64,000 nt of DNA. Origin: a virus. Location of the stretch: positions 39,040 to 103,039 of IMG/VR virus record IMGVR_UViG_3300036670_000209; one strand, given 5' to 3'. A model generated the notes under the pieces. The model was not told the origin of the DNA and did not search any database. It was given only the letters and a program-made list of their open reading frames with translations. The translations under genes were made by a program, and so were the position numbers. How positions within the stretch are numbered: the first letter of the stretch is position 1; each line of letters starts with the position of its first letter. Below are positions 2,552-21,121 of the stretch, piece by piece.

Positions 2552-2991
2552 GATATATTCCTTGTTTGGTCACAACATCCACTGATCGTCATTGCTTCAA
2601 TACTTTCCAATATGGTCACATAGGAAAGTACCAAGGCGCTGGAAGGATAACCGCTTAACTCACTCCACACTTGCAGTTCATCTGCAGTCATGGACAAATA
2701 ATGACCACTATGATCGTATGCAACCAGTGCCAACGTCACATCCCACATGATCCATCTAGCTGACCATGTCCATGTGATCAACTTTGACGGCATCGCTGAT
2801 TCCACTGCCACCAACACTGCATCCCATTCCTTTTCTCTTGATGCTGCTTTGACCGCACGCCACGCAGCGTGCTGTATGTCTGTGCCGCATCCTGTGTGAT
2901 GCACTGCATCAAGATGAGTGGAGAATGCCCCCACTTTAGACATTACCTGATCTATGTGCCGTGCATTGGGCAAGTGACTCCATGCAGTCAT
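2548..2991 (-). CDS. WSHLPNA-family paralog (array 1)
   Basis: Conserved termini; ATGA coupling. Confidence 0.85.
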   Translation of the reverse strand: MTAWSHLPNARHIDQVMSKVGAFSTHLDAVHHTGCGTDIQHAAWRAVKAASREKEWDAVLVAVESAMPSKLITWTWSARWIMWDVTLALVAYDHSGHYLSMTADELQVWSELSGYPSSALVLSYVTILESIEAMTISGCCDQTRNIS

Positions 2992-3428
2992 GCTGTTTCC
3001 TTGTTGATGTTTTCCAAGAAAGTCACATATGGAACCAACAAGATCGCTGCTGGATCTGTGCCCAGGGCGCTCCAGGCGCGTAGCTGATCTGCGGTCATGG
3101 TCAGATATCGGTCACTGTAATCATAGGCAACCAATGCCAATATCGCATCCCGCATCACTATGTCGACGATCACCTGCCGTGGCGCATCCCATGCTGCATC
3201 CCTTGCCGCACGCCATGCCGTACGCCGTGCCGCATCCCTTGCCGCATCCCTTGCCGCATCCCACGCCACATTCTTCGCCGCACGCCATGCCGCGCCCGAT
3301 GGCAGCAAAGCTTGTGCCACCTCTTGTGACACACATGCGGCTGGAATTGGTGTAATATGTAACAACCGTATATTGGCTATCACTGCATCAATATGCAGTG
3401 CATTGGGCAGGTGACTCCATGCAGTCAT
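2988..3428 (-). CDS. WSHLPNA-family paralog (array 1)
   Basis: Conserved termini; DAARDAARDAAR core. Confidence 0.85.
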   Translation of the reverse strand: MTAWSHLPNALHIDAVIANIRLLHITPIPAACVSQEVAQALLPSGAAWRAAKNVAWDAARDAARDAARRTAWRAARDAAWDAPRQVIVDIVMRDAILALVAYDYSDRYLTMTADQLRAWSALGTDPAAILLVPYVTFLENINKETA

Positions 3429-3838
3429 GCCAGTTCCTTTGAGGTATTATGCTCCATGAAAGTCACATAGGGCAGTAACAGTACGGCTGCTGGATCTGTG
3501 CCCAGGGCGCTCCAGGCGCGTAGCTGATCTGCGGTCATGGTCAGATATCGGTCACTGTAATCATAGACAACCAGTGCTAGTATCACAGACTGTGATACAT
3601 CCCATGCTGCACCCCATGACGAATTCCACGCCGCATTCCACGCTGCATCTAATATTGTATCTCTTGATGCTGCTTGGGCCGCAAGCCATGCCACATCTTG
3701 CGCCACATCCTGTACCGCACGCCATGCCGTATGGCCCGCCACACTACATGCTGGCGTCGGTCTAACATGTAATAACTGTATGTTAATCAACGCCTGATCT
3801 ATGTGCCGTGCATTGGGCAAGTGACTCCATGCAGTCAT
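3425..3838 (-). CDS. WSHLPNA-family paralog (array 1)
   Basis: Conserved termini; DAAWNAAW core. Confidence 0.85.
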   Translation of the reverse strand: MTAWSHLPNARHIDQALINIQLLHVRPTPACSVAGHTAWRAVQDVAQDVAWLAAQAASRDTILDAAWNAAWNSSWGAAWDVSQSVILALVVYDYSDRYLTMTADQLRAWSALGTDPAAVLLLPYVTFMEHNTSKELA

Positions 3839-4230
3839 GCCAGTTCCTTTGAGGTATTATGCTCCATGAAAGTCACATAGGACAGTAACAAGATCGCTGC
3901 AGGATCTGCGCTCAGCGCACCCCATACCTGTAGTTGGTCTGAGGTCATGGTCAAATATCGGTCACAATAATCATAGGCAACTAATGCCAATATCGCATAC
4001 TGCGCCGCATCTCTCGCCGTATTCCTTGCCGCACTCCACGATGTAGTCCATGCCGCATCTAGTATTCTATCTCTCGATGCTGCGTTGGCCGCATCTCTTG
4101 CCGCATACCATGCCGCAACCACCGCCGCATCCCGCGCCACACTGTGTACTGGTGTAATGAGCAACGACCGTATATTGGCTATCACTGCATTAATATGCCG
4201 TGCATTGGGCAAGTGACTCCACGCGTTCAT
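3835..4230 (-). CDS. WSHLPNA-family paralog (array 1)
   Basis: MNAWSHLPNARHIN; conserved C-terminus. Confidence 0.85.
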   Translation of the reverse strand: MNAWSHLPNARHINAVIANIRSLLITPVHSVARDAAVVAAWYAARDAANAASRDRILDAAWTTSWSAARNTARDAAQYAILALVAYDYCDRYLTMTSDQLQVWGALSADPAAILLLSYVTFMEHNTSKELA

Positions 4231-4706
4231 ATGTTTTCCTGAGTAGTAGTTGTTATACCAGTTGTGTTGATCGCGTCACGTAGTTGTAACCAAGTGAGTA
4301 TTGTTCTCCAGCCCATGGGTTGCGCCAGTGCCAGTATGACTCCTGCGTGCTCCAATCCCATGAGAGAATAATCAATCAATGAATCATTGGTAACCAGCAG
4401 CATGATCATATCCAGCAACCAGCGGGCTCGCTCCAGGTCAATGTCGTGGTCCCGATCACTATCACTTAGATAATAACCACTATCACCTAGATAATAACCC
4501 AGTGGGCCGTTCATCTGATGGTCCACTGCTTCACAGATCTGAACTTGCTGTATGGTTTTGGCATCTCTGCACTGTAGCCAATCATCATCGCACAAACACT
4601 GCACATCAATCTGAGGTAGGCTATCCCAGATGTTTGATTTGGACTGCATGAGCTGAATCAGCTCATCAATCAGCTGGGCGTTGGCCAGATGTGACCAGAA
4701 TACCAT
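4227..4706 (-). CDS. Divergent WSHLPNA-family paralog
   Basis: Start moved to MVFWSHLANAQLID; weak similarity at the C-terminus. Confidence 0.65.
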   Translation of the reverse strand: MVFWSHLANAQLIDELIQLMQSKSNIWDSLPQIDVQCLCDDDWLQCRDAKTIQQVQICEAVDHQMNGPLGYYLGDSGYYLSDSDRDHDIDLERARWLLDMIMLLVTNDSLIDYSLMGLEHAGVILALAQPMGWRTILTWLQLRDAINTTGITTTTQENI

Positions 4707-4800
4707 TATTGTGCTTCCAGGTGTATGGCATGACGTACATGCAAATAGGGCATCAGCAGCTGGTCCAGGTAAACTGCATTGGGCAGCTGACACCAGGCAT

Positions 4801-5811
4801 TCATGATATACACTGGGAAAATGCCAGGCTGGCAATATTCTTACCCTTGGCCTCGCACTGTATGTCAAAGTCTTGTGAAAATCCTGCTGCCCAGCGATTC
4901 ACCGCGTGATTCCAATAATAGTCAGAATGCGCTCGTAATTTCTGACGATTATGCCCAGTGCCCAGCAGACTGGCCAGATCTGGCCTGACCTCAGGATCAT
5001 GTGCCACCAGATAGTCCTCACGAGATACCGAATAATGACACGCAGGTCTGACACCTCTCCAGCTGTCAATAACTCGCCGGACCTGATCGTCCTGGGGATC
5101 AATATATTCCCCTTCACGAATCCAATTGTGATGGATATCCATCACAATGGGCACAATGTCTGCAATTTGCAAGCAGTCACTGAGCCCCCAACTATTTTCT
5201 TCGTTTTCTATGGTAATACAATTCCTGGCCTCAGGGCTCAGCTGCTGGTATGCACGTCGGATACCATCAGGGCCCTGTTTACCGCTGATGTGCACATTGA
5301 TCTTAAAGTCTTGAAAAGTTTTGCCGTAGCCCATCCAGCGTGCCATGTCAGCATGATACTCAAACTCAGCCAGACTACGCTCCACGATACCAGGATTTTC
5401 ACTGGCCAGTACCACAAACTGTCCTGGATGCATGCTCAGTCTCACATCCAGTGCTCGGGCAGCCTGCCCCACCCTGGCAAACTCCCTGGCGCAGTATTCA
5501 CGAACATCGTCACGTTGCCAGAAATAACTCCAATCTCGCTGTGTATACACGGGCAGCTGATTGCTGCCCAGCCGCACCATGCGCAGATTGTCCGGCAGGC
5601 TGCCCACATACTGCACCAGGTTCAGTGCACTGCCGGTATTATGCACCATGATGTCCCACAGTCTTTGCTCGGCATCTGCACGTGTCTGTCTGTTTAACCA
5701 GGCCACCGTGGTACATTTTTCAGTACGAGCTCGCTGAATTTCTTCCAGTAATTTCACTGGCTGTGTTTGGTCTGGATGTAAATACTTACAGCAAAATCCC
5801 ACTCTACCCAT
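4801..5811 (-). CDS. uvsE: UV-damage endonuclease (UvsE/UvdE family)
   Basis: RLSMHPGQF, INVHI, TIENEE, DIHH, HYS, AHSD, EAKGK motifs of the UVDE TIM barrel; GGAG RBS before ATG 5811. Confidence 0.92.
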   Translation of the reverse strand: MGRVGFCCKYLHPDQTQPVKLLEEIQRARTEKCTTVAWLNRQTRADAEQRLWDIMVHNTGSALNLVQYVGSLPDNLRMVRLGSNQLPVYTQRDWSYFWQRDDVREYCAREFARVGQAARALDVRLSMHPGQFVVLASENPGIVERSLAEFEYHADMARWMGYGKTFQDFKINVHISGKQGPDGIRRAYQQLSPEARNCITIENEENSWGLSDCLQIADIVPIVMDIHHNWIREGEYIDPQDDQVRRVIDSWRGVRPACHYSVSREDYLVAHDPEVRPDLASLLGTGHNRQKLRAHSDYYWNHAVNRWAAGFSQDFDIQCEAKGKNIASLAFSQCIS

Positions 5812-5872
5812 GATCAACTCCAGTAATATAATTAATAATTCGCAATGTGTACATTATACACTATAATGCTGG

Positions 5873-6889
5873 TTAGAAACCAACCAGGTCCTGAATAATT
5901 TCATAGTGATCTTCAAAGCACTCGGCACTGTTTATTTCTGCAAAAGGTACCCAACGTGCTCGTGTGGCATCATCTGAACCTTTTACACGTGGTAAATCAC
6001 CATCAGGCAACCGAATCAGTTGCACATGGGTGATGATTCTACCACGCGCACTGCGATCTATTGCATCATATACCCGGCTGCGTACAATGCTACCACGTAA
6101 CACTGGTTCAGGTACCCTGATCAGGGTTTCTTCTCTGAGTTCTCGGATAGCTGCATCCACTACGGTGTTGTCAGTCTGTGCATTAATGTATCCGCCAGGC
6201 AGCGCCCATAACCCACGGCCCGGCTCAGCGCGTCGTTTGATCATGAGCACATGTCCGCTGCACACCACCACTGCATCAGCAGTGCTGAATATAGGAGGAT
6301 ACCTGAGCCCAGCATATTGCCGATTATGATCCACGATAAATTCACGCTCCCTGATCACCTGAGAGTAGTCATCAGTGCGGGCAAAATTCTCCAACCAGTC
6401 ATGCACTGGCAAGGGTACCACTCCTTTGATGAAATTATAGTTCACCTGGCGTTTGAAATACAGGTCCCTGATGTCCACTGCGCTCAGTGGCTGTATACTT
6501 TCCACATTCTCGTATGCCCACTGTGGAAACATATCCAGATAAAAGGAACTTTCATCTTTTTTATGCCCAATCATGCCCACACGGGCACCGGAATGCGCAT
6601 GTGCGGCCACCAGCTGTTGTACCCTGGTGGCCCAGGCCTGGTTATTGTACAGGCTGTCAGTGGTGGATTCCACGGAAATATTCAAGCTCAATCCGCCAGT
6701 GGCCAGGCGTATCATGTGCGCACGTTCTACAAAAGTAAATGGATTCTTGAATGTTCGGGGAAGATTTGCACTACCCACCACAATCACCAGTTTGTCACAC
6801 ATGGCGGTTGCTCGCTTGATGATCTCCAGGTGAGCATTGTGCAGTGGTTGGAATCTGCCAATAAAAACCAAAACGTCATATTTGTTCAT
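5873..6889 (-). CDS. Bifunctional NMN adenylyltransferase / Nudix ADP-ribose pyrophosphatase (NadM-Nudix)
   Basis: GRFQPLHNAH (HxxH) and KNPF; Nudix box ALPGG...AAIRELREET; GSDDA; FEDH. Confidence 0.92.
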   Translation of the reverse strand: MNKYDVLVFIGRFQPLHNAHLEIIKRATAMCDKLVIVVGSANLPRTFKNPFTFVERAHMIRLATGGLSLNISVESTTDSLYNNQAWATRVQQLVAAHAHSGARVGMIGHKKDESSFYLDMFPQWAYENVESIQPLSAVDIRDLYFKRQVNYNFIKGVVPLPVHDWLENFARTDDYSQVIREREFIVDHNRQYAGLRYPPIFSTADAVVVCSGHVLMIKRRAEPGRGLWALPGGYINAQTDNTVVDAAIRELREETLIRVPEPVLRGSIVRSRVYDAIDRSARGRIITHVQLIRLPDGDLPRVKGSDDATRARWVPFAEINSAECFEDHYEIIQDLVGF

Positions 6890-7218
6890 TTTAGTGACTC
6901 CTTTGCCAGTTTAAACACCTTCAATGCGGTGTCAGCTGCTATACCTTCAGCCTGGCAGGCGTGAGTAAATTTCAGAGCTTTTTGCAAATACTCTCCATGA
7001 GTATGAGCAAGCCAGTCATCCTGTTTGTTTTTCATCTCATAGAACCATCCGCAACCATCCGTGTGATTATGAGTACAAAATATACTGTGCAGTGTTTTGG
7101 CCAGTTGGTAACGGGGTTCAAGTTTAGCTAATGTGAGCTGTTGCTCAAGATCGGCCAATTCTCGGGTACGTTTTTTGATTTCTTCTTCAATTTCGAAGAG
7201 TGTTAGGGCTGTTGACAT
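6886..7218 (-). CDS. Hypothetical protein, paralog of 24687-25097
   Basis: LAKTLHSIFCTHNHTD vs LAKQLYALVCSKNHSD; own promoter upstream. Confidence 0.7.
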   Translation of the reverse strand: MSTALTLFEIEEEIKKRTRELADLEQQLTLAKLEPRYQLAKTLHSIFCTHNHTDGCGWFYEMKNKQDDWLAHTHGEYLQKALKFTHACQAEGIAADTALKVFKLAKESLK

Positions 7219-7283
7219 TGAAAAATCCTTTCAATTAATATCATGTTGCGTTGCGTCTATCGCATTGCTTGCTGTTCCATATC

Positions 7284-7312
7284 AGTATAACACCAAATTA
7301 TATATCTGTCAA
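7284..7312 (-). promoter_or_regulatory. sigma70-type promoter TTGACA-N17-TATACT
   Basis: Read directly. Confidence 0.7.
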
Positions 7313-7339
7313 GTGCTGGCACCCAGTGTGACACTGTGA

Positions 7340-7564
7340 TTATTGGTTAACTCCAAAATGTTTCCTAATCCGTTTTGAACACTCGCTGACTATCGAGCCC
7401 CTTGAATCTGACTCGGATACTATCCAACATTGTGTTACACATTCTTCTACAATCAACTCAGCAAACTTTTTTAACTCTTGTTCGCAATCATCACCTGATT
7501 CACTGAACCAAGAATCCATGAATCCGGCCACATCAGCCAGTTGTTTTATTCGTTCATTTATCAT
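7340..7564 (-). CDS. MNERI/HFG-family small protein
   Basis: NERIKQLA...KFAELIVEEC...RKHFGV. Confidence 0.75.
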   Translation of the reverse strand: MINERIKQLADVAGFMDSWFSESGDDCEQELKKFAELIVEECVTQCWIVSESDSRGSIVSECSKRIRKHFGVNQ

Positions 7565-7761
7565 GTGGGTTTTCTCAAACTATCAGCAAACCATTCATTC
7601 AGATTAGCATTCAGTGCGGGCAAAGTATCCTCATTGAATTCATGCTCGCACTCCGCTCTAATCATTCGAAATAATTCAGTGATTCGTTCTGAATGACTAA
7701 AACCCTGCGTGACTTCGCGTCGAATAATTCTACGCATGAACCATTGTTCAAAAATATTCAT
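7561..7761 (-). CDS. Hypothetical protein
   Basis: ORF track; coupled to neighbour. Confidence 0.6.
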   Translation of the reverse strand: MNIFEQWFMRRIIRREVTQGFSHSERITELFRMIRAECEHEFNEDTLPALNANLNEWFADSLRKPT

Positions 7762-7807
7762 TCCTTACTCCTAAAATGTTGTTTGATTTTTGTTGATCCA
7801 CTGGTGC

Positions 7808-8065
7808 TCATACTAGATCTTTATCTACACTGTCCATCATTTTTACAATATGGTCATCCAATGTAATTTTTCCATCTGTATATTCATATAGATACGCAGT
7901 TGGATCATTAATCGTAACGGCCAAATCCTGGTGTACAAAATCGTATTCTTTGAATGTCCAAGCTGGCAAACTTTTATCATAAACTCGAAAAACATACTTG
8001 TCATGCGACCACATGATAACTCCATTGATACCATCTGCACTAGTGTTTGAAATAAGCTTGCTCAT
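7808..8065 (-). CDS. Hypothetical protein
   Basis: ORF track; ATGA coupling. Confidence 0.6.
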   Translation of the reverse strand: MSKLISNTSADGINGVIMWSHDKYVFRVYDKSLPAWTFKEYDFVHQDLAVTINDPTAYLYEYTDGKITLDDHIVKMMDSVDKDLV

Positions 8066-8259
8066 TTTACAAACCTTGGCATTCTATTATGTATGCCATC
8101 ATAAATGTAGCAGCCCAAACACGGCAACATACCTTCGAGATCATCACTGGAATGACGATCAATGAGAGAATGGTCACCATCAACTAGCATATAATATAAA
8201 CTGGTTGTACCTTCGTCAATCTGCGGTTTAAAAATATGTTCTAGGTCAGTTAGTGTCAT
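8062..8259 (-). CDS. Hypothetical protein
   Basis: ORF track. Confidence 0.55.
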   Translation of the reverse strand: MTLTDLEHIFKPQIDEGTTSLYYMLVDGDHSLIDRHSSDDLEGMLPCLGCYIYDGIHNRMPRFVK

Positions 8260-8261
8260 TA

Positions 8262-8456: not shown

Positions 8457-8635
8457 TTATGTAACCATGTGTTATATGCAATATTCGTACCAATGAGTAG
8501 CCAAATGATAGCAAGTCCAGCCTGGCTGTGAAACAAGAAATTTAAACCAGCTGCTGTGTTTAGTGCACTGACTGTATATCCGATGGGCCTATGATTATGT
8601 GATAACCAGTCTGCAACAAAGATAATTTTATTCAT
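8453..8635 (-). CDS. Small membrane protein
   Basis: Hydrophobic segments; coupled ORF. Confidence 0.55.
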   Translation of the reverse strand: MNKIIFVADWLSHNHRPIGYTVSALNTAAGLNFLFHSQAGLAIIWLLIGTNIAYNTWLHK

Positions 8636-9113
8636 TTTTAATTCCCAAATGTGTTGCCAGCTGCTGCTCTGGTTTGCTGATATGGTTTAATATCAGCTGT
8701 ATATAATTTGCCAACAGTATTGCCGCAGGGTCATTTTTAAGCAGCCCCCAGGGCAGTAGTTGGTTGGCGTTCGCTTCCAGATAGTCAGATGCATGGTCCC
8801 ATATCAGTATGGCTTGCATGGCATCCACTATGATCACACTGCTGAAGTTCACTATACTATCATGATATGCCTGGAACTCGTTACTGAACATACGTTCCAC
8901 ACGTATTTGACGCAGTTGCCACCAAACTTTGTGCTGGGCGCTAGTTTCCGGCTGCTGGCGTACCAGTGCCACCATCAACTCCCGGGCACCAGCCAACTGA
9001 TGCAGATCCACTGCACCAGGATCAATGGAGGGCACCACCGGTGCATTCTGCATATGTTCCCACATGTTTTCAAGTATTGCACTGTTGGGTTGTTGTGTAA
9101 ATATTGGCTTCAT
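8628..9113 (-). CDS. Divergent solo WSHLPNA-family paralog
   Basis: Start MKPIFTQQPNSAIL; DAMQAILIWDHASDYL...QLLPWGLLKNDPAAILL; promoter TTGACA-N17-TATACT at 9139-9167. Confidence 0.7.
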   Translation of the reverse strand: MKPIFTQQPNSAILENMWEHMQNAPVVPSIDPGAVDLHQLAGARELMVALVRQQPETSAQHKVWWQLRQIRVERMFSNEFQAYHDSIVNFSSVIIVDAMQAILIWDHASDYLEANANQLLPWGLLKNDPAAILLANYIQLILNHISKPEQQLATHLGIKNE

Positions 9114-9422
9114 ATGGTGTGTTTGATGGACTGATACCAGTATACAGTAAAGCGACATACCTGTCAAACTCCAGATCATAGCATGTTAAACAGTGCTGGC
9201 ATGTAGTAAAAATAGGTAAATAACATCCAAATAGCCATCCATCTCTGTTGCCGGCCCTGGCAATATTCACGATAGGTCAATAGCACCAAGGAAATATAAA
9301 TCACATGAGGAATTAATAATTTGATTATCATCTGGGTACTCATAGCAGTGGGCATGGTTATTTAATTGGCAGGCCATGTGCAGGCTGAGCGAACATGGCA
9401 TCTGGTTTCGTAAGTGGAATTT

Positions 9423-9855: not shown

Positions 9856-9939
9856 TCACTGGTCAAGTGCCAAGTGGTCGATGTTATCTGGTACCTGATT
9901 CAGGTATGCAGCGTTGGTCAAGTGGTTATGATCTGTCAT
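9856..9939 (-). pseudogene. Truncated WSHLPNA-family remnant
   Basis: MTDHNHLTNAAYLNQVPDNIDHLALDQ*, ATGA-coupled to 9936-10394. Confidence 0.55.
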
Positions 9940-10394
9940 GTTGCCTTTGTTTGTATTGATTGTGCTTGCGTCAAGTGTGCTGGTACCCCCAGGGCGTTTG
10001 CAGTTCCCATGAAAGTTACGTAGGGCAGCAATAGCACACTGGCAGGATCTGCGTTTAACTTACTCCAAACAGCCAGGTGATCTGAGGTCATGGTCAGATA
10101 TCGGTCACAGTGATCATAGGCGATCAGGGCCATTATTGCATCTCTTGCTGCATCCCTTGCTACACTCACAGCAGCCACCTCCCAGGTTACATCACGTAGC
10201 GCATTACGCGCCGCGCGCTTTGCTGAAATCCATGCGGCATCCCGTTCCGCATTCCACAACTCACCCCAGGCCGCATTCCAAGCCGTATTCCTTGCCGCAT
10301 CACACGCCGGTATTGGTCTAATAGAGAACGACTGTATGTGGGCCAATACCTGATCAATATGCGCCGCATTGGGTAAATGACTCCATGCAGTCAT
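9936..10394 (-). CDS. WSHLPNA-family paralog (array 2)
   Basis: Conserved termini and repeat core. Confidence 0.85.
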   Translation of the reverse strand: MTAWSHLPNAAHIDQVLAHIQSFSIRPIPACDAARNTAWNAAWGELWNAERDAAWISAKRAARNALRDVTWEVAAVSVARDAARDAIMALIAYDHCDRYLTMTSDHLAVWSKLNADPASVLLLPYVTFMGTANALGVPAHLTQAQSIQTKAT

Positions 10395-10831
10395 GCTGTT
10401 TCCTTTGAGGTAGCAGGTTCCATGAGGGTCACGTAGGGCAACAACAAGATTGCCGCCGGTTCTGTGCTCAACTTACTCCAAACAGCCAGTTCGTCAGCAG
10501 TCATGGTCAGATATTGGGCACTGTGGTCATAGGCAATCAGGGCTATTATCACATCCTGTGCCGCATCCCATGCCACATCCAATGCCGCATTCCATGCCAC
10601 ATCCCCCGTTACGGTCAGCACCAGTGCACTGTATACCGCACGCCGCGCCGCGCACCATGCTGCATCTTGTGACACCTCTTGTACCCCATCCTGTGCCGCA
10701 CGCCAGGCCGCATTTTGTGCCACCTTTTGTACCACATGTTCGGTTGGCATTGATCTAATAGAGAACGACCCCAAGTTGGCTATCACTGCATCAATATGCA
10801 GTGCATTGGGCAAGTGACTCCATGCAGTCAT
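10391..10831 (-). CDS. WSHLPNA-family paralog (array 2)
   Basis: Conserved termini and repeat core. Confidence 0.85.
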   Translation of the reverse strand: MTAWSHLPNALHIDAVIANLGSFSIRSMPTEHVVQKVAQNAAWRAAQDGVQEVSQDAAWCAARRAVYSALVLTVTGDVAWNAALDVAWDAAQDVIIALIAYDHSAQYLTMTADELAVWSKLSTEPAAILLLPYVTLMEPATSKETA

Positions 10832-11241
10832 ACTGGTTGCTCGGTTGTGGAGTGTTCCAATAGGGTCACATAGGGCAGTAGTAGGATTGCCGCTGGATCT
10901 GTGCCCAGGGCGCTCCAGGCGCGTAGTTGATCTGCGGTCATGTTCATGTATCGGTCACTGTGGTCATAGGCAACTAATGCCATTATTGCATCTTGTACCG
11001 ACCGCCATGCCCCATGCCACGCCACATCCCATGCCACATTCCATGCCGCATCCCATGCCGCATCCCATACCACATCTCTTGATGCCGCCTGCGCCGCACC
11101 CCATGCCGCATCACGTGCCACATCCCATGATGCACGCCATGCCGCATCATGTGCCGGCATTGGTCTAATAGAGAACAACTTCATGTTGATCAATGCCTGA
11201 TCTATGTGCCGTGCATTGGGCAAGTGACTCCATTCCGTCAT
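10828..11241 (-). CDS. WSHLPNA-family paralog (array 2)
   Basis: Start moved to MTEWSHLPNA at ATGA overlap. Confidence 0.85.
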   Translation of the reverse strand: MTEWSHLPNARHIDQALINMKLFSIRPMPAHDAAWRASWDVARDAAWGAAQAASRDVVWDAAWDAAWNVAWDVAWHGAWRSVQDAIMALVAYDHSDRYMNMTADQLRAWSALGTDPAAILLLPYVTLLEHSTTEQPV

Positions 11242-11675
11242 GCTGTTTCCTTGGTTGTGATGTGTTCCAATAGGGTCACATAGGGCAGTAACAGCACACA
11301 TGCAGGATCCGCACCCAACGCACTCCATACCTGTAGTTGATCTGCTGTCATGTGCATGTATCGGTCACAGTGGTCATAGGCGATCAGGGCCATTATTGCA
11401 TCTTGTGCCGACCGCCATGCCACATCTTGCACCACATCTATTGCCGCGTTCCACGCCGCATCCCATGCCCCATTCCATGCCACATCTCTTGATGCCACCA
11501 GCGCCGCGTTCCACGCCGCGTTCCACGCCGCGTTCCACGCCGCGTCTCGTGCTGTACGCCATGCCGCACGCCATGCTGCATCATGTGCCGGCATTGGTCT
11601 AATAGAGAACGACTCCAAGTTGGCCAATACCTGATCTATGTGCCGTGCATTGGGCAAATGACTCCATTCCGTCAT
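11238..11675 (-). CDS. WSHLPNA-family paralog (array 2)
   Basis: Start moved to MTEWSHLPNA; AAWNAAWNAAWNAA core. Confidence 0.85.
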   Translation of the reverse strand: MTEWSHLPNARHIDQVLANLESFSIRPMPAHDAAWRAAWRTARDAAWNAAWNAAWNAALVASRDVAWNGAWDAAWNAAIDVVQDVAWRSAQDAIMALIAYDHCDRYMHMTADQLQVWSALGADPACVLLLPYVTLLEHITTKETA

Positions 11676-12085
11676 GCTGTTTCCTTGGTTGTGATGTGTT
11701 CCAATAGGGTCACATAGGGCAGTACTAGGATTGCCGCTGGATCCGTACCCAACGCGCCCCATATTTTCAGTTGATCTGCGGTCATGGTCAGATATTGGGC
11801 ACTGTGGTCATAGGCAACTAATGCCATTATTGCATCTTGTGCCGATCGCCATGCCACATCCCATTCCACATCTCTTGCCGCGTTCCACGCCGCATTCCAT
11901 GCCGCATTCCATGCCACATCTCTTGATGCCGCCTGCGCCGCATCCCATGCCGCATCTCGTGCTGTACGCCGTGCCGCACGCCGTACAGCATCATATGCCG
12001 GCATTGGTCTAATAGAGAACAACTGCGTGTTAATCAATGCCTGATCTATGTGCCGTGCATTGGGCAAATAACTCCATTCCGTCAT
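11672..12085 (-). CDS. WSHLPNA-family paralog (array 2)
   Basis: Start moved to MTEWSYLPNA. Confidence 0.85.
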   Translation of the reverse strand: MTEWSYLPNARHIDQALINTQLFSIRPMPAYDAVRRAARRTARDAAWDAAQAASRDVAWNAAWNAAWNAARDVEWDVAWRSAQDAIMALVAYDHSAQYLTMTADQLKIWGALGTDPAAILVLPYVTLLEHITTKETA

Positions 12086-12507
12086 GCTGTTTCCTTTGAG
12101 GTAGCATGCTCCAAGAAAGTCACATATGGAATCAACAAGATCGCAGCGGGATCCTCGTTCAGAGCACCCCATACCTGTAGTTGGTCTGAGGTCATGGTCA
12201 AATATCGGTCACAATAATCATAGGCAACTAATGCCAATATCGAATACCTTGCCGCAGTCCGTGCCGCATCCAATGCCGCACTCCACGATGTAGTCCATGC
12301 CGCATCCAATTCCGCATACCATGCCGCATCTCTTGCCGCATACCATGCTGCATCTCTTGCCGCAGCTATTGCCGCATCCAATGCCGCAGCTATGATCTCA
12401 GCCTGACACGTTTGATATGCCCTGCTGGCTTCAGTGGGATACGAGTGTAAGTTGGCTATCACTGCATCAATATGCCGTGCATTGCGCAAGTGACTCCATT
12501 TGGTCAT
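12082..12507 (-). CDS. WSHLPNA-family paralog (first gene of array 2)
   Basis: MTKWSHLRNARHID; conserved C-terminus. Confidence 0.85.
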   Translation of the reverse strand: MTKWSHLRNARHIDAVIANLHSYPTEASRAYQTCQAEIIAAALDAAIAAARDAAWYAARDAAWYAELDAAWTTSWSAALDAARTAARYSILALVAYDYCDRYLTMTSDQLQVWGALNEDPAAILLIPYVTFLEHATSKETA

Positions 12508-12533: not shown

Positions 12534-12899
12534 TTACAGGCCCAGTAGCTGGCGTTCTTCATCAGTGAGTTTGGCCAGCGCACCAGCTTTGAGTTTGAGT
12601 AAACGACTGGCCTCTGCTGCTTTTTGCTCCTTGTACTCCACTGCACGATCCAAGTCAAACAGATCCAGGTCTGACTTCACGCTCCATTTGGAACTGATTA
12701 GAAAAGCATCACCGCACTGATCGTCAAGATCCTCAAGGTAGAAATCCGAGCCTCTGACACTGAGCTCAATGTACACTGCACCTGCACGATCCAACACTCC
12801 CATCATGCGCATGATATAAGTGTCTCGGTCCAGCTGTTCAACCTGAGTGTGCACTGAGTCATTGCGCTGTGCTCTTTGTGCTTGGGTCTCTTTTGTCAT
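12534..12899 (-). CDS. Hypothetical protein (ALAKLT.EE family), paralog of 23241-23609
   Basis: Start moved to MTKETQ after promoter; ends ALAKLTDEERQLLGL. Confidence 0.7.
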   Translation of the reverse strand: MTKETQAQRAQRNDSVHTQVEQLDRDTYIMRMMGVLDRAGAVYIELSVRGSDFYLEDLDDQCGDAFLISSKWSVKSDLDLFDLDRAVEYKEQKAAEASRLLKLKAGALAKLTDEERQLLGL

Positions 12900-12932: not shown

Positions 12933-12961
12933 ATTATAGCACAGTTGAATAACCCTGTCAA
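12933..12961 (-). promoter_or_regulatory. Consensus sigma70 promoter TTGACA-N17-TATAAT with shared leader
   Basis: Perfect hexamers followed by CAACACATAAACAGC; probably drives array 2. Confidence 0.85.
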
Positions 12962-13397: not shown

Positions 13398-13426
13398 ATT
13401 ATAGCATATTTGGATAATCCTGTCAA
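13398..13426 (-). promoter_or_regulatory. Consensus sigma70 promoter TTGACA-N17-TATAAT with shared leader
   Basis: Read directly. Confidence 0.85.
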
Positions 13427-14639: not shown

Positions 14640-14648
14640 GATATAAAC

Positions 14649-14711: not shown

Positions 14712-14722
14712 ATTGCACTTGA

Positions 14723-14905: not shown

Positions 14906-14961
14906 AATAAGCCTTTGTTGATAGTTTATTATAACATAGTGATAACAAAAGTAAACTTATT

Positions 14962-15291
14962 TCATAATTTCTTAACAGTGAATTCGTGTCCAAGAACATA
15001 ATACTGGTCATTATCCGAGTCACACCCATAAAGAAATGTTGATGTACCAATATACAGATCTTCACCTATGCTGAATTTTCTCCAATATTCATCATCACCA
15101 CAGCATGCGCGTACTGAGCAATCTTCCAGAGCAAGATTAAATAACTCATTTTCTATGCTTTTGCTTAATTCTTCTAATGCTTCACCAGAGTTGATTACGG
15201 GTTTCTTACTTAATTCATCTAACTTGCGATTCAAAACCCCAAGTTTACACGTTAGTTCAAAAATATTATATTCGAGTTCTTGTTTATTCAC
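14962..15291 (-). CDS. Hypothetical protein, family with 18073 and 18547
   Basis: GTG start at GTGA overlap; C...CG.D.Y..KF.IG..LY.G motif. Confidence 0.65.
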   Translation of the reverse strand: MNKQELEYNIFELTCKLGVLNRKLDELSKKPVINSGEALEELSKSIENELFNLALEDCSVRACCGDDEYWRKFSIGEDLYIGTSTFLYGCDSDNDQYYVLGHEFTVKKL

Positions 15292-15596
15292 TGTGCATCT
15301 GCAATCATAGGACATTGTCCGGTCATGCTGGCTGAGACACTGTTTGGACAAATCCAACCAGATTGTTTTTTAATATCAAAATGTTTTACTATATCACTAT
15401 TCAACCAAGAGGCAGTTTCTTGTGTGTTGCGTCCAAGGTCAATGGATTCACCCATAGTCGCATTTACAACATCTAAACAGTCTTTTATAATTAGCTCTGC
15501 AAAATGTTCTATTGCGGCTCTCTGAACTGGACCGGTTTTAAAGAAGTCTGCAATACGTTCATTGCATTGTGCTATTTCTTGTATTCGTTCGTTCAT
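15288..15596 (-). CDS. MNERI/HFG-family protein with C-terminal extension
   Basis: MNERIQEIA...HFAELIIKDC...VKHFD. Confidence 0.7.
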   Translation of the reverse strand: MNERIQEIAQCNERIADFFKTGPVQRAAIEHFAELIIKDCLDVVNATMGESIDLGRNTQETASWLNSDIVKHFDIKKQSGWICPNSVSASMTGQCPMIADAQ

Positions 15597-15657
15597 GACA
15601 ATATTCCAATTAATATTATGGTTAAACCGATTACTATTAACCATTTACACCAGTTGA

Positions 15658-15864
15658 TTATTCAACTCCAAAATGTTTCTTGATGTGCCAGCATGGGTGA
15701 ATACCATCTTTGGATTCCGGCACAGTATCTGGTAACACATCAGAAACTACATCTAGACATTCCTGAATGATCAATTGGGCGAACCTTTCATACACCGTGT
15801 CGTTAGGCAGTGCGACATAATGCACACCAGCCTGTTCCAATAGGTCTCGAATTTGTTTGTTCAT
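15658..15864 (-). CDS. MNERI/HFG-family small protein
   Basis: MNKQIRDLL...RFAQLIIQEC...KKHFGVE. Confidence 0.75.
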   Translation of the reverse strand: MNKQIRDLLEQAGVHYVALPNDTVYERFAQLIIQECLDVVSDVLPDTVPESKDGIHPCWHIKKHFGVE

Positions 15865-16025
15865 CAGTAGCACTCCTCAAGAATGACATTGTGACCTAGA
15901 TGCTCTAACAGGTTCTTGATACCTTGTGTGCCCAGGTCTTCATCATTGTGATCCCAACTGAAAGTCTTACCATCTACCTTCACTGTCCATCCGTCACAGT
16001 GTTGCTCAATTTCAATATTTTTCAT
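15864..16025 (-). CDS. 53-aa hypothetical protein (not in ORF track)
   Basis: MKNIEIEQHCDGWTVKVDG...EECY*; overlaps both neighbours at start/stop. Confidence 0.6.
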   Translation of the reverse strand: MKNIEIEQHCDGWTVKVDGKTFSWDHNDEDLGTQGIKNLLEHLGHNVILEECY

Positions 16026-16255
16026 TCTTCAACTCCAAAATGTTTCCTGACCACAGCCACACCTTCATCGACATCATTATAGTGCAGTACAATGTTGGTG
16101 CATTCTTTAACAATCAACTCAGCGAATTTTTCCAATCCGACACCTTTAGTATAAACAATCTTTTCAATACCTGTTGCTACTGGAATATACCAATCAGAAT
16201 CATCCAGAAATTTACATCCAGCCTGTTCAGCAAGTTTTTGAATTCGCTCATTCAT
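16022..16255 (-). CDS. MNERI/HFG-family small protein
   Basis: MNERIQKLAEQAG...LEKFAELIVKEC...RKHFGVEE; promoter TTGATA-N17-TATAAT at 16291-16319. Confidence 0.8.
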   Translation of the reverse strand: MNERIQKLAEQAGCKFLDDSDWYIPVATGIEKIVYTKGVGLEKFAELIVKECTNIVLHYNDVDEGVAVVRKHFGVEE

Positions 16256-16330
16256 AATTTAACTCCTATTATATTTCAGTTTATATATTAATTATAACAC
16301 AATTAAACAACTGTATCAAGCCTAAAGTTT

Positions 16331-16678
16331 TTACCAGGTAACCTGAATGTAAGGCAGCATCTTAAGCGTAACTTCTTCATCCATGCTTTTGAATCCTCCG
16401 CCAATCCGTGTCTCTCGATATGAGATTTTAAACTCATACCCCAGCTGTTTCATTTCTTGTTCAATTGATCTTTGCAAGGGAGTAAACTCTGCTGAATAAA
16501 ATGACTCAGTCACAACCCTAAATTCCACATGATATGGAAGGGCTATATCTAACCAAATTTCGGATTTACCTAGACTAGCAGCAATGCTAATTTTTTCTCC
16601 AATCTGCTGTATCCGTTTGGTCATGATGACATGACTGGTTTCAACTGCTGCACGTGCTTGCTGTGCTGTGATCATCAT
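16331..16678 (-). CDS. Hypothetical protein
   Basis: Start moved to MMITAQQA after AAGGA. Confidence 0.65.
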   Translation of the reverse strand: MMITAQQARAAVETSHVIMTKRIQQIGEKISIAASLGKSEIWLDIALPYHVEFRVVTESFYSAEFTPLQRSIEQEMKQLGYEFKISYRETRIGGGFKSMDEEVTLKMLPYIQVTW

Positions 16679-16713
16679 GTGTTCCTTTGTTGTGATTGGC
16701 ATTGGCAGGACAG

Positions 16714-16953
16714 TCAGGGGTAGTAATCAACATCCACTGCATCTACTTCATAATACATATTACGTCCTGCAATAACCATGGCCTCAATCTCTGTGTAACC
16801 CAGTGGTGAACTCATCAGTTGGCGAACATGTTTAGCCTGGCTGGCGCTGCGTAACTGCTCGCACTCAGCGAATGCCCTGGCTTTTGATGTGTAGCCTTTG
16901 ACCACCTCATAGCCCAGGTCAATTATTTCACACACCAACCACACGGTGGTCAT
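16714..16953 (-). CDS. Hypothetical protein
   Basis: ORF track. Confidence 0.6.
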   Translation of the reverse strand: MTTVWLVCEIIDLGYEVVKGYTSKARAFAECEQLRSASQAKHVRQLMSSPLGYTEIEAMVIAGRNMYYEVDAVDVDYYP

Positions 16954-16955
16954 GA

Positions 16956-17219
16956 TTAAACTCCAAAGTGTTCGTTAATATCCATCTCAGCAGTGGCCAT
17001 TGCTTCATCTACATTACATTCATCATCAATGGCTTGATTCTTTCTTTTAGAGACAATACTAACACATTCAGCCACAATCAATTGGGCGAACCGTTCAATA
17101 GATGCCATCCGAATGTCAATAGGAACTCTATACCCATCTGGTGCATTAACTGTATATAAATGTACCATATAACCATGCAAATGACTATCTATACACATTT
17201 TTCTAATTTGTTCGTTCAT
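16956..17219 (-). CDS. MNERI/HFG-family small protein
   Basis: MNEQIRK...ERFAQLIVAEC...NEHFGV. Confidence 0.75.
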   Translation of the reverse strand: MNEQIRKMCIDSHLHGYMVHLYTVNAPDGYRVPIDIRMASIERFAQLIVAECVSIVSKRKNQAIDDECNVDEAMATAEMDINEHFGV

Positions 17220-17434
17220 ACTTCAACTCCAAAGTGTTTCACAATTTTCCAATAGGGATGAGCACCTTCTTTGGATTCTGCCGCATCATCATCATCGGAC
17301 ACATCCTCAGACACAACATCCATACATTCTTGAATGATCAACTGGGCGAATTTTTCTAGTTTAGTGGGAATACCCTCTGGATTGTATGTTGGCAACCCAG
17401 CCTCATGAGCAAGGTCTCGAATTCGTTGGTTCAT
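17216..17434 (-). CDS. MNERI/HFG-family small protein
   Basis: MNQRIRDLAHEAG...LEKFAQLIIQEC...VKHFGVEV. Confidence 0.75.
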   Translation of the reverse strand: MNQRIRDLAHEAGLPTYNPEGIPTKLEKFAQLIIQECMDVVSEDVSDDDDAAESKEGAHPYWKIVKHFGVEV

Positions 17435-17499
17435 GTGTTGCTTTCCGGTGTGTTGCTGTTTATGTGTTAATTATAACAAAGACCCTGTCAACTGATGGG

Positions 17500-17709
17500 T
17501 TATTCCGACTCCCATGAATCTGTTACTAGATCGTATTTGTTTTCGCTGTGATAGCTAGCATACGCGTAATCAGCAGCCTTACCGGGTGTGTCGCCATACC
17601 CGCAAATTTGGTAGACAGTCATGGTTTTACTGTCTTTGAACGTCAGGAACGCTCGATAATCCTCATCCTGAATTTTTTCTTGAACTTCAATACTAATAAA
17701 ATGTATCAT
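17500..17709 (-). CDS. Hypothetical protein
   Basis: ORF track. Confidence 0.55.
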   Translation of the reverse strand: MIHFISIEVQEKIQDEDYRAFLTFKDSKTMTVYQICGYGDTPGKAADYAYASYHSENKYDLVTDSWESE

Positions 17710-17710
17710 T

Positions 17711-17929
17711 TCATTCTCCGTGGATCATTACAAGAACCTTACCAGCCATTTCTGGATATTTACGCTGATGAAGTGGATCACGGTAGTCCAGGGTATAACA
17801 GCATTCAATGTCCACTGACTGCATGGTCATATGGGTTTCATAACCACGTGATACTTGAACACCGCATTCTACTTCAGCATCTTGTGGGAGTGTTTTCATC
17901 CATTCAATCATTTGTGCTACTGTTGTCAT
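17711..17929 (-). CDS. Hypothetical protein
   Basis: ORF track; promoter at 17965-17993. Confidence 0.65.
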   Translation of the reverse strand: MTTVAQMIEWMKTLPQDAEVECGVQVSRGYETHMTMQSVDIECCYTLDYRDPLHQRKYPEMAGKVLVMIHGE

Positions 17930-18550
17930 GCGTTGCTTTCTGGTGTGTTGCTGTTTATGTGTTAATTATAGCATAAAACAAAAACCCAGTCAAGTTTCGG
18001 GTTATTGCGCACCAAGGTATTTCTTGATTTTGGTTACTATGAACATGTCCTGGCCCAGCGGCCAGGACGCTGTTACCTGCCAGGGCCAATGGCTCTGGTG
18101 CATGGAGTGGGCAATTCGTTGGCATCCAGAAACACCAAACTCACGTTAAATTCGTGATCGTCAATGAAGTAGTAGGTTTTATCGTGTCTGTTGTATTCAA
18201 AGCTAGCAACACCTTCATACAAGGTTTCACCCACATAAAATTGTTTTGAATATTGGGCTAGACCACAATTGTATGAGCCTTCACAGGCTTGTTCAGCAAG
18301 TGCATACAGCTCACCGTGTATCTTAAGTGTAGCATCTTCCAAGCTTTGGAACACATTGTTCTTGGGATCCTGATTGAAATTGTTCATCTGAAAATTCCAG
18401 ATCGTCAGCTCAGCTGACACGCGATCAATGTTGTCTTGGATTTCTTGCCTGGATAGTGTGACTTTATTCATCATGCGTTGCTTTCTGGTGTGTTGCTGTT
18501 TATGTGTTAATTATAGCATAAAACAAAAACCCAGTCAAATTTCGGGTTAT
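17926..18550. repeat. 80-bp direct repeat (17926-18005 and 18471-18550) containing promoter TTGACT-N17-TATAAT and leader
   Basis: Aligned by eye, one mismatch. Confidence 0.85.
18073..18474 (-). CDS. Hypothetical protein, paralog of 18547-18912
   Basis: PKNNVF..LE.A...AC.G...CG...YSKQFYVG.TLYEG shared. Confidence 0.75.
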   Translation of the reverse strand: MMNKVTLSRQEIQDNIDRVSAELTIWNFQMNNFNQDPKNNVFQSLEDATLKIHGELYALAEQACEGSYNCGLAQYSKQFYVGETLYEGVASFEYNRHDKTYYFIDDHEFNVSLVFLDANELPTPCTRAIGPGR

Positions 18551-18912
18551 CCAACGCCAGAGTATTTTTTGATTTTGCCCACAGTAGTCACGGGCACCAA
18601 ATTCACCGTGAATTCATGTGCAACAATATAATAATAGGTCGTCTGGTTGTATTTAAATTTTGATATGCCCTCGTACAGAGTACTGCCCACATAAAATTGC
18701 TTGGAATATTCATCCTGACCGCACCCATGAGCCCCACTGCATGCTGCTCCGGCAATTGAATACAACTGGTCTCCGATCAGTGCGCTGGCTATTTCCAGGG
18801 TGTCATAGACATTATTCTTGGGATTTTTTTCAAAATCCACATCATAAGTGGTACAATCCGCCAGCGCACTGCTGTCTGTACAAATGTTATTTTGAATTTT
18901 TTGTTTGCTCAT
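18547..18912 (-). CDS. Hypothetical protein, paralog of 18073-18474
   Basis: Same shared motif. Confidence 0.75.
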   Translation of the reverse strand: MSKQKIQNNICTDSSALADCTTYDVDFEKNPKNNVYDTLEIASALIGDQLYSIAGAACSGAHGCGQDEYSKQFYVGSTLYEGISKFKYNQTTYYYIVAHEFTVNLVPVTTVGKIKKYSGVG

Positions 18913-19090
18913 TTTTTAAAATTATTTTAATCATTTGATATAAGATTGCAGCGTTCCAGGGATTATCCACACAAATCTTTTGCATATTTATTATATCAGC
19001 TTCTGCGATTGTGGGCTCATGTTCTATTAACAGTTCACGGACAATTTCTTCGTTTAGTATTGCGTTCACATCTGGCGTGGTTGGTTTCAT
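18887..19090 (-). CDS. Hypothetical protein
   Basis: ORF track. Confidence 0.55.
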   Translation of the reverse strand: MKPTTPDVNAILNEEIVRELLIEHEPTIAEADIINMQKICVDNPWNAAILYQMIKIILKNEQTKNSK

Positions 19091-19505
19091 ACTGTGGGCT
19101 TTCTCAGACTTGCATTAAACCATTCAGTTAGATTTGAATTCAATGTGGCAATGGTGATCTGATCCACTGGTGGTCTGATAGTTCTATGGTCTCGTGTGAT
19201 TCGAGTGTGGTCAATTTTCATTTTTACTTCCAAATAATCGATAAGTGAACTACCAGTTCCTGAGTAGCAATATCAGCGGCGCACAACATATCAATACCAA
19301 ATATAATATCCAAATCATACGCCGTGCTGCGATTATTTTTTTCTGTGTTTCAAACATCAGCAGCATGTAGGTCACAGCATTTAGTATTAATACCAAAATT
19401 ATTAGTAGTAGTTGTCCGTGGTCCATGAGATCCTCCTGTTAACTGATACGCTGCGGCCGTGGTTGCCCTGTCAGCTGCAACTGAAAAATATTATAAGCCC
19501 AGGTG

Positions 19506-19727
19506 CTACAGGCGATATTTGGCTAGCACACTGACGGCCAAATCCACTGAATCAATCTGATCAGTTATCTCCAGTTGCATCAGCTGGATCAGCAGCTGGC
19601 ATTGCTGCTGATGCTCCGGGAGCAGGCTGGCTATAAATATGTCCACCCGCGTTTTATTTTCCATTTGCCAGATTATCTGGCAAAAAAGTTGCTGCAAGCG
19701 TGTGAGTCCATTCAGTGTGATATCCAT
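19506..19727 (-). CDS. Hypothetical protein
   Basis: ORF track; GGAGA RBS. Confidence 0.6.
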   Translation of the reverse strand: MDITLNGLTRLQQLFCQIIWQMENKTRVDIFIASLLPEHQQQCQLLIQLMQLEITDQIDSVDLAVSVLAKYRL

Positions 19728-19783
19728 GATTTCTCCAGTATATGTTGATTGTAATGCAGTGCAGTTTATAAGTCAAACCAGGT

Positions 19784-20212
19784 TCAGTGTTTTTTGTTCA
19801 GTGCAAGCTGTACACACACCATTGGGTATAGCAGGCTGCCAGCTGGGGTGGGGTTTAGTATATTCCATACCACCAGCTGATCAGGCGTCAGGTTCAGGTA
19901 CTGCCCACAATTATCATATATAATCAGTGCCAATAGTATGCCCTGTATCGCAGCCCAGGTATAATTATTAACCCGTATCCCATGTTTTTCCAGCATGTTC
20001 ACGTGATTTTGAATTTTGACCATCATGGTGATCCAAACGTGATTACGCCGTCCATCCCAGAGTACACTGTGTGCAGCCGACCACGACACGTCCCATTCAC
20101 TTCCCAGGTGGCTAAAACTCCAAACTGAGTCCCATGCCGGTGTCTCTGGGTCCAAACTGTTCAGCAGCTGGTTAATATGGGCTGCGTTGGGCAGGTGACT
20201 CCATGCTGTCAT
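19784..20212 (-). CDS. WSHLPNA-family paralog (array 3)
   Basis: Start moved to MTAWSHLPNAAHIN; promoter TTGACT-N17-TATAAT at 20239-20267. Confidence 0.8.
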   Translation of the reverse strand: MTAWSHLPNAAHINQLLNSLDPETPAWDSVWSFSHLGSEWDVSWSAAHSVLWDGRRNHVWITMMVKIQNHVNMLEKHGIRVNNYTWAAIQGILLALIIYDNCGQYLNLTPDQLVVWNILNPTPAGSLLYPMVCVQLALNKKH

Positions 20213-20228
20213 GCTGTTTCCTTGGTTG

Positions 20229-20693
20229 CTATGCGTCAATTATAGCAGAATTCATTAACCCAGTCAACTGTGGGGGCTTTACCGTTTCCAATAGAGTCAC
20301 ATATGGAATCAATAAGATCGCAGCGGGATCGTCGCTCAAAGCACCCCATACAGCCAGATGATCTGCGGTCATGGTCAGATATCGGTCACTGTGATCATAG
20401 GCAACCAATGCCAATATCGCATTTAATGTCGCATCCCACAGCACGATGTCAACGGTCACCTGCTGTGACGCATCCCATGCCGGCCCCGATACCACATCTC
20501 TCACCACACCCCATGCCGCACCCAATGCCTCAGCTCTCGCTGCGACACATGCCACATCCCTGGCCACATCCCAGTAGGCCGTCGCCAGCCCAACCAAAGA
20601 CTTTTTGGCATCTGATCTATCTGGAAACGATCGCAAGTGGGCCAGCACCTGATCAATGTGCCGTGCATTGGCCAAGTGACTCCATTCAGTCAT
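20229..20693 (-). CDS. WSHLPNA-family paralog (array 3)
   Basis: Conserved termini and repeat core. Confidence 0.85.
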   Translation of the reverse strand: MTEWSHLANARHIDQVLAHLRSFPDRSDAKKSLVGLATAYWDVARDVACVAARAEALGAAWGVVRDVVSGPAWDASQQVTVDIVLWDATLNAILALVAYDHSDRYLTMTADHLAVWGALSDDPAAILLIPYVTLLETVKPPQLTGLMNSAIIDA

Positions 20694-21121
20694 GATGTTT
20701 CCTTTGAGGTGGCATTTTCCAAGAAAGTCACATAGGGCAGTAATAGGATCGCTGCGGGATCATAGTTCAATGCACACCATACGCGCAGTTGATCTGCGGT
20801 CATGGTCAAATATTGGGCACAATGGTCATACACAACCAATGCCAATATCGCATTCAATATCGCATCCCGCATCACTATGTTGACGGTCACCTGCTGCGGC
20901 GCATCCCATGTCACATCCCATGCCGCATCCAACGCCACATCCCTGGTCTCGGTCAGCACCAGTGCGCCGTACACCTCACACCGCGCCGCGCGCGATGCTG
21001 CATCTTGTGCCACCTCTTGTGACACACATGCGGCTGGTATTGGTCTAATAGAGAACGATCTTATGTTGGTCAATACCCAATCTATATGTGCTGCATTGGG
21101 CAGGTGACTCCATGCAGTCAT
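20690..21121 (-). CDS. WSHLPNA-family paralog (array 3, mosaic core)
   Basis: Start moved to MTAWSHLPNA at ATGA overlap. Confidence 0.85.
   Translation of the reverse strand: MTAWSHLPNAAHIDWVLTNIRSFSIRPIPAACVSQEVAQDAASRAARCEVYGALVLTETRDVALDAAWDVTWDAPQQVTVNIVMRDAILNAILALVVYDHCAQYLTMTADQLRVWCALNYDPAAILLLPYVTFLENATSKETS

Follow-up and report, generated by a model that had tools for sequence, protein, structure and literature searches.

Gene conversion and unequal crossing-over between paralogs are known from the babA/babB and hom outer-membrane genes of Helicobacter pylori and from pairs of mycobacterial PE_PGRS genes (PMC1762029; reviewed in PMC3924818 and PMC3924837). The DNA considered here, bases 39040-103039 of the 103-kb IMG/VR virus record IMGVR_UViG_3300036670_000209, is a metagenome-assembled fragment; the whole stretch of 64,000 nucleotides is referred to as the window. 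Within positions 1-22808, its minus strand encodes a single family of small genes in about 25 intact copies, which occupy about 10 kb of the genome. The locus shares with converting tandem families the short identical tracts in diverged paralogs, the trees that depend on the gene segment, the hybrid genes, the changes in copy number and the fact that a dedicated enzyme is not required. As in gene-converting tandem multigene families, its paralogs share homologous segments capable of pairing, some of their common tracts exceed chance and their segments are phylogenetically incongruent. It differs from babA/babB, hom and PE_PGRS by its location in a phage genome, its approximately 25 very small genes, the 12-bp in-frame repeats in the middle of these genes and its weak homogenisation (synonymous divergence, dS, of about 1). 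The process is of a known kind, i.e. textbook recombination between paralogs, while the family itself is undescribed and unusually expanded here. The explanation that we favour, with a probability of roughly 80%, is that duplication, unequal crossing-over and short-patch gene conversion operate in a phage-only, early-transcribed multigene family.

Several viral systems are also comparable to this locus. Genomes of the T4 superfamily reportedly contain hyperplastic regions in which small early genes lie between conserved core modules. The locus is similar in its runs of small genes, its sigma-70-like early promoters, its lineage-specific and fast-changing character and its setting between replication and repair genes (UvdE, NMNAT-Nudix, ligases, clamp loader). 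Such plastic regions usually hold unrelated orphans, whereas one family fills about 10 kb in three arrays here. Large DNA viruses possess gene accordions and multigene families, such as the amplified poxvirus K3L gene and the MGF families of African swine fever virus (ASFV). In these, as in our locus, recombination has expanded a viral gene family with a probable role in host interaction, and diversification followed the gain in copy number. In contrast to K3L and MGF, the present family has no established host-defence target and its copies are old and diverged rather than recently amplified. Finally, phage diversity-generating retroelements, of which the mtd gene of Bordetella phage BPP-1 is the model, likewise combine a constant scaffold with a hypervariable part in a phage gene. 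Unlike for mtd, neither a reverse transcriptase nor a template/variable repeat pair nor adenine-specific changes were found in the 103-kb record, and the variation is between paralogs and not inside a single targeted gene.

Identical tracts and mosaic genes

The proteins of the family are about 130-165 residues long. They begin with a constant block of 22 residues (MTAWSHLPNAxHID..), the N cap, followed by a short variable linker. The core is built from 12-bp units encoding four residues of the AAW/AAR type (AAWD, AARD, AAWN and others), whose number and order vary. A constant block of about 55 residues (ILALVAYD..YLTMTADQL..LLLPYVTFLE), the C cap, closes the protein. Between copies the two caps are 70-90% identical in nucleotide sequence, with exact matches of 20-81 nt. 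Most copies belong to three arrays, which span positions <1-4706 (array 1), 9936-12507 (array 2) and 19784-22808 (array 3); individual genes are designated below by their coordinates or by their first coordinate.

An earlier note on this DNA had listed six peptide motifs common to distant copies and concluded that core blocks are shuffled between them. A six-frame scan combined with alignment retrieved all six motifs exclusively in the genes that it had named, and always on the minus strand. FSIRP/S occurs in 20690-21121 and in five array-2 genes. The block IPAACVSQEVAQ is restricted to 2988-3428 and 20690-21121, VY.ALVLT.T.DVA to 10391-10831 and 20690-21121, and WDA[PS].QV.V.IV to 2988-3428, 20690-21121 and 20229-20693. 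AAWTTSWSAA is present only in 3835-4230 and 12082-12507, and RAWSALGTDP only in 2988-3428, 3425-3838 and 10828-11241.

At the nucleotide level some of these resemblances are exact and look recent. The longest tract, of 81 nt, is found at 3046-3126 in gene 2988-3428 and again at 3486-3566 in the adjacent gene 3425-3838 (minus strand); it is read as a conversion tract. This pair of genes has 0/81 differences inside the tract and 42/138 outside, while other gene pairs differ there at a median of 21 sites and at no fewer than 6. A second tract, of 79 nt, links genes located 8.2 kb apart in different arrays, i.e. 3917-3995 of gene 3835-4230 and 12164-12242 of gene 12082-12507 (minus strand). Here 0/79 differences inside contrast with 28/140 outside, other pairs differing at a median of 18 sites (minimum 5). 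It corresponds to the identical 3' block of about 75 bp that the earlier note had reported; the block is real but belongs to the 5' part of the C block (its first half) and not to the 3' end. The same two genes share an exact core tract of 33 nt encoding AAWTTSWSAA (4027-4059 and 12274-12306, minus strand). Furthermore, a 34-nt tract encoding IPAACVSQEVAQ is identical between 3311-3344 and 21004-21037 (minus strand), and a 35-nt tract encoding RAWSALGTDP is common to three genes.

The gene 20690-21121 (minus strand) is a mosaic. Its nucleotides 1-30 and 85-118 are identical to those of 2988-3428, which lies 17.7 kb away, while the intervening nucleotides 31-84 differ from that gene by 37% and are nearest to 9936-10394 and 1241-1678. 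Successive segments of this comparison thus count 0/30, 20/54 and 0/34 differences. Further downstream, nucleotides 102-222 are 86% identical to 10391-10831 and nucleotides 195-267 are 89% identical to 2988-3428.

Formal tests were carried out on the two gap-free constant blocks (22 and 51 codons) of 19 core genes. Both the 81-nt and the 79-nt tract were globally significant (p<=0.001) in a GENECONV-like permutation of polymorphic sites. The pairwise homoplasy index (PHI) was significant overall (p<=0.0005), at third codon positions only (p<=0.001) and after removal of the four genes bearing the long tracts (p<=0.007). Arrays 1 and 3, taken separately, gave significant values as well, with one of two third-position runs for array 3 (k=5) at p=0.065. 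The null model consisted of 100 alignments simulated without recombination (IQ-TREE AliSim, mimic mode) under fitted GTR+G parameters on the maximum-likelihood tree. The PHI z-score was -9.4 for the real data and 0.23 +/- 1.06 for the simulated alignments (minimum -2.3; n=100). Among pairs with at least 25 differences, the longest identical tract measured 81 nt in the real data and at most 64 nt in the 100 simulations.

The phylogenies of the two blocks conflict. The N-block tree contains a clade {759, 2988, 3835, 10391, 12082} with support 95/95, which the C block rejects in the approximately unbiased (AU) test (p=0.032). Conversely, the pairs 2988+3425 and 759+1707 of the C-block tree are rejected by the N block (AU p=0.005 and 0.024, respectively). 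Triplet tests detected clustered parental runs, such as in 759-1244, whose 5' end is like 10391/2988 and whose 3' end is like 1707 (p=5e-5, uncorrected). Within one pair of genes, the dS of the N block and that of the C block can be as much as 7-fold apart. Cap divergence is independent of distance, with 0.280 within arrays and 0.284 between them, and this equality fits exchange between arrays.

Could the same pattern arise by vertical divergence after duplication, with the common blocks being ancestral, the cores differentially lost and the tracts kept by local constraint? The caps are indeed under purifying selection (dN/dS of about 0.22), the best matches between arrays are collinear, operons have a leader gene and a promoter in common (see below), and the VY.ALVLT block is just 80-86% identical between its two carriers. 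Constraint nevertheless fails to explain 0/79 and 0/81 differences, since the remaining pairs show 5-34 in the same stretches. The PHI signal extends to third codon positions, none of the simulations run with fitted rates on the best tree reproduces it, and the N and C trees disagree. This recombination-free scenario is therefore highly improbable. The claim of homologous exchange between paralogs, including paralogs of different arrays, is borne out by PHI, by the tract tests and by the incongruence of segment trees, all of them significant. So is the long range of the exchange, with one globally significant tract connecting genes 8.2 kb apart and a mosaic pair separated by 17.7 kb. The exchange may still be ongoing, as the earlier note supposed. 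As to the proposal that exchange generates combinatorial variants, mosaic genes do exist, but they may be a by-product of repeated DNA in a highly recombinogenic phage instead of an evolved device.

Duplication, exchange and competing explanations

Part of the resemblance between distant genes has another origin. The best whole-gene matches of the array 1 genes 2988, 3425 and 3835 are, in the same order, 10391, 10828 and 12082 of array 2, and 10828 has tandem duplicates, 11238 and 11672. Since these matches are collinear, part of the distant resemblance reflects descent from a duplicated three-gene block, on which later patches such as the 79-nt tract were superimposed. The three middle genes of array 2 are 79-86% identical in nucleotide sequence with a tandem period of 410-434 bp, and are recent tandem duplicates carrying the footprint of unequal crossing-over. 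Unequal crossing-over also yields hybrid genes. Arrays 2 and 3 are related through duplication of a whole operon head. Sharing between distant paralogs, which had been attributed to recombination, thus comprises patches exchanged between arrays as well as common descent (the three-gene block; the promoter and leader gene of arrays 2 and 3). In the repeat core, presence or absence of a block may also come from differential loss or repeat slippage.

In the mechanism that we propose, the family would grow in two ways, by tandem duplication through unequal crossing-over and by the copying of entire operon segments. With 30-80 nt of homology, the constant caps would give general homologous recombination a substrate for crossovers and short-patch gene conversion, be it inside one array or from one array to another. 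Owing to its in-frame 12-bp repeats, the core could expand, contract and recombine out of register. Such exchanges would result in mosaic genes. We infer that the enzymes belong to a phage UvsX-type system, as in T4, and any direction, rate or benefit ascribed to the events would likewise be inferential.

A number of observations weigh against this explanation. The typical dS is about 1.0 (median, in all comparisons of copies; about 2.6 for the pair of leader genes), so the family is for the most part old and has escaped homogenisation, and only a few events look recent. Array 2 alone gives no third-position PHI signal, and when the very divergent copies are included (22 sequences, columns defined by a hidden Markov model, HMM) the third-position PHI is not significant (p=0.87). 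The clades of the AU and triplet tests were picked after the trees had been seen, and their p-values carry no multiple-test correction. The sharing of the VY.ALVLT block between 20690-21121 and 10391-10831, at 80-86% identity, is the weaker part of the mosaic and, taken alone, could be explained by shared ancestry followed by differential loss. In most arrays of other phages PHI is not significant. No homolog of RecA or UvsX was found in the 103-kb fragment, and the recombination machinery is thus assumed. No close relatives were found for a comparison of positional orthologs, and conversion is not separable from recombination with co-infecting relatives. Finally, some junctions of this metagenome assembly could be chimeric.

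The last point raises the question of an assembly artefact, in which the contig would be a chimera of strain variants or paralogs joined at shared k-mers. The record is metagenome-assembled and about 29% complete, and exact repeats of 30-81 nt between paralogs could mislead a short-read assembler. Yet none of the 21 core genes is broken or out of frame, and their ATGA junctions and ribosome-binding sites are regularly placed. A misjoin exchanges flanks and does not create identical tracts inside divergent genes. The incompatibility signal extends over at least 15 genes and outlasts the removal of those bearing tracts, and an independent contig from another phage, L064, displays the same signal (PHI p=0.001). 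An artefact is very unlikely on these grounds.

The exchanges might also have taken place mainly between co-infecting related phage genomes rather than ectopically within one genome. T4-like phages recombine freely in mixed infections, the divergence shows no dependence on distance and many related uncultured phages carry the family. In the family tree, paralogs group by genome (20 of 22 from the window, 8 of 8 from locus L057), as expected from lineage-specific expansion, concerted evolution or both. Because a single clade, separate from the copies of other phages, comprises 20 of the 22 window copies, the donors were paralogs of the same lineage or very close relatives. Moreover, both partners of the two longest tracts are inside this genome. 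Exchange mainly by co-infection seems quite improbable as a replacement for ectopic conversion, although it overlaps with that explanation and does not exclude it.

The constant frames around a hypervariable core are superficially like those of a dedicated diversification system, i.e. a diversity-generating retroelement, a site-specific shufflon or silent-cassette antigenic variation. No match to RVT_1 (reverse transcriptase), Phage_integrase or Resolvase (tyrosine and serine recombinases) was detected in the 103-kb record, which represents about 29% of the genome. In the closest pairs, mismatches affect all four bases and show no adenine bias. All copies are in direct orientation, without relevant inverted repeats, and the variation reaches into the caps. 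Every core copy (21/21) is a full in-frame open reading frame (ORF) with its own ATG and ribosome-binding site in a translationally coupled operon, which argues against a single expression site. On the evidence of this record, a dedicated system is hardly credible. Considered individually, a retroelement is contradicted by the lack of a template/variable repeat pair differing almost only at template adenines. A shufflon or invertible cassette is at odds with copies on a single strand and with the absence of recombinase matches from the roughly 29% of the genome in the record. Silent cassettes of the pilE/pilS or vlsE type do not correspond to copies that are all full ORFs with their own start. 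The earlier statement that variants arise without a reverse transcriptase holds for the 103-kb record, about 29% of the genome, and agrees with the absence of adenine-biased mismatches.

Arrays, promoters and neighbouring genes

Across the 103-kb record, 24 family matches were counted. Array 1 contains 11 family genes on the minus strand, recognised from ORFs, start motifs and HMM matches. From left to right these are <1-298, which runs off the left edge, 368-730, 759-1244, 1241-1678, 1707-2117, 2114-2551, 2548-2991, 2988-3428, 3425-3838, 3835-4230 and the divergent 4227-4706. Of these, <1-298 is a divergent copy that crosses the window edge and closes the array. Past this end, just left of the window (L079, G000:C1:36000-39400), three further ORFs were noticed by eye from the translations, one macro-domain-like, one RNA-ligase-like and one with Cys-rich repeats. 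A solitary divergent member was identified by HMM match at 8628-9179 (minus strand); its true start is probably internal, past a promoter-like site at 9167-9139. Array 2 comprises six genes on the minus strand (9936-10394, 10391-10831, 10828-11241, 11238-11675, 11672-12085 and 12082-12507). Array 3 comprises seven genes, also on the minus strand (19784-20212, 20229-20693, 20690-21121, 21118-21519, 21512-22009, 22006-22461 and the divergent 22458-22808). Adjacent family genes mostly overlap by ATGA stop/start junctions and each is preceded by an AAGGA-like ribosome-binding site.

A leader gene stands at the head of array 2 (12534-12899) and another at the head of array 3 (23241-23609), both on the minus strand. 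The two leader genes are paralogous, encode proteins of about 121 residues and are 38% identical in amino acid sequence (E 5e-23). No leader gene was found beside the family arrays in the loci of other phages. A perfect sigma-70-type promoter with an extended -10 element lies upstream of the array 2 leader gene (12961-12933), and a near-identical perfect promoter upstream of that of array 3 (23672-23644). Perfect 12/12 sites of this kind are located on the minus strand at 12933-12961, 13398-13426 and 23644-23672. The three share a longer consensus that continues into the 5' untranslated region, TTGACAG..TGCTATAATCAACACATAA[A/G]CAGC. Many promoter-like sites matching 11/12 positions are additionally present on the minus strand over 7-20 kb. 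These sigma-70-type extended -10 promoters are probably the early promoter class of the phage. With leader genes and near-identical promoters at their heads, arrays 2 and 3 therefore resemble early operons. Array 1 lies directly downstream of genes for a UvdE UV-endonuclease and an NMNAT-Nudix protein (NadM-type) at 4801-7218 (minus strand). It apparently belongs to one transcription unit with them, behind a promoter-like site at 7312-7284.

Other small-protein families are present between the arrays, on the minus strand. One has two members, at 15288-15644 and 16956-17219, with the motifs MNE[RQ]I..., ..FA[EQ]LI..C.. and ..HF... Another consists of three paralogs, at 14962-15357, 18073-18474 and 18547-18912, which have ..Y[SW][KR][QK]F[YS][VI]G..LY.G...F.Y.. 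in common near the C terminus.

The record has a CheckV completeness of about 29%. PHROG matches in the window point to T4-type functions, namely an RNA ligase/tail-fibre attachment catalyst, a clamp loader and a DNA ligase. The window also encodes the UvdE endonuclease and a fusion of NMN-adenylyltransferase with Nudix. The T4-type functions argue that the window is a fragment of an uncultured T4-like jumbo phage, an assignment that rests on replication and repair genes. A related locus (L001) contains a long ORF that resembles a B-family polymerase, as judged from its translation only. No near match to the window exists among GenBank phage records.

The family in other phages and its possible role

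A protein search retrieved 783 metagenome homologs, all unnamed. In IMG/VR, 74 loci carry the family. Arrays are common among them, and the largest number 11, 9 and 8 copies over a 20-kb span. These relatives are all at most 43% identical in amino acid sequence, so that no close relative is among them. No family match was obtained in bacteria and archaea (185,579 species, one genome each), nor in GenBank phages by megablast and tblastn. A DNA pattern specific for the clade gave 0 viral matches and 4 chance matches in metagenomes.

Pfam, NCBIfam and PADLOC contain no match to the family. PHROGs returned weak matches to families of unknown function only (phrog_8332, best E 2.7e-9; phrog_3416; phrog_18326). 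A sequence profile search of the PDB gave chance-level matches only. Two AlphaFold models are all-helical with pLDDT of 68 and 76; the caps are confidently predicted (80-92), the core is not. Foldseek found no fold match for these models (E>1), VIA-align reached Z<=6 against generic helical bundles, which is below the meaningful level for helical proteins, and the ESM Atlas yielded unnamed viral clusters only. The literature, searched by motif and by topic, provided no description of the family.

The AAW/AAR repeat is also fused to DUF7666 (P0128, P0132), DUF6745 (P0136) and DUF6197 (P0127), which gives no functional lead. In other metagenome contigs, at least one of them 3.9 Mb long, AAW[D/N]/AAR[D] repeats stand between differing N- and C-terminal domains (also P0125, P0129). 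The repeat may be a general helical spacer or binding element of variable length.

Diversifying selection on the core is not demonstrated, since dN/dS, with an uncertain alignment, is 0.6-0.9 (0.2-0.5 in the C block) and does not exceed 1. As a guess, the family would encode putative early-expressed cytoplasmic binding proteins, and the two caps would fold, again by conjecture, into one small helical bundle presenting the variable helical core. It is conceivable, although unlikely, that the arrays represent a phage-encoded repertoire of binding proteins. The helical caps would then be the fixed base and the core, with its four-residue period of Trp and Arg, the variable surface. Caps and in-frame 12-bp repeats would be kept for recombination yielding new specificities against variable host factors, e.g. 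defence systems. If so, the arrays would achieve by recombination, and without a reverse transcriptase, what retroelements achieve by their own mode of diversification.

Overall, at least 74 contigs of uncultured phages contain this phage-only family, which has no name or recognisable fold and has repeatedly expanded into arrays. Its mosaic structure reveals interchangeable modules, which helps in designing expression and binding experiments. A family that phages maintain as numerous diverged copies is a good candidate for a function in host interaction or counter-defence.

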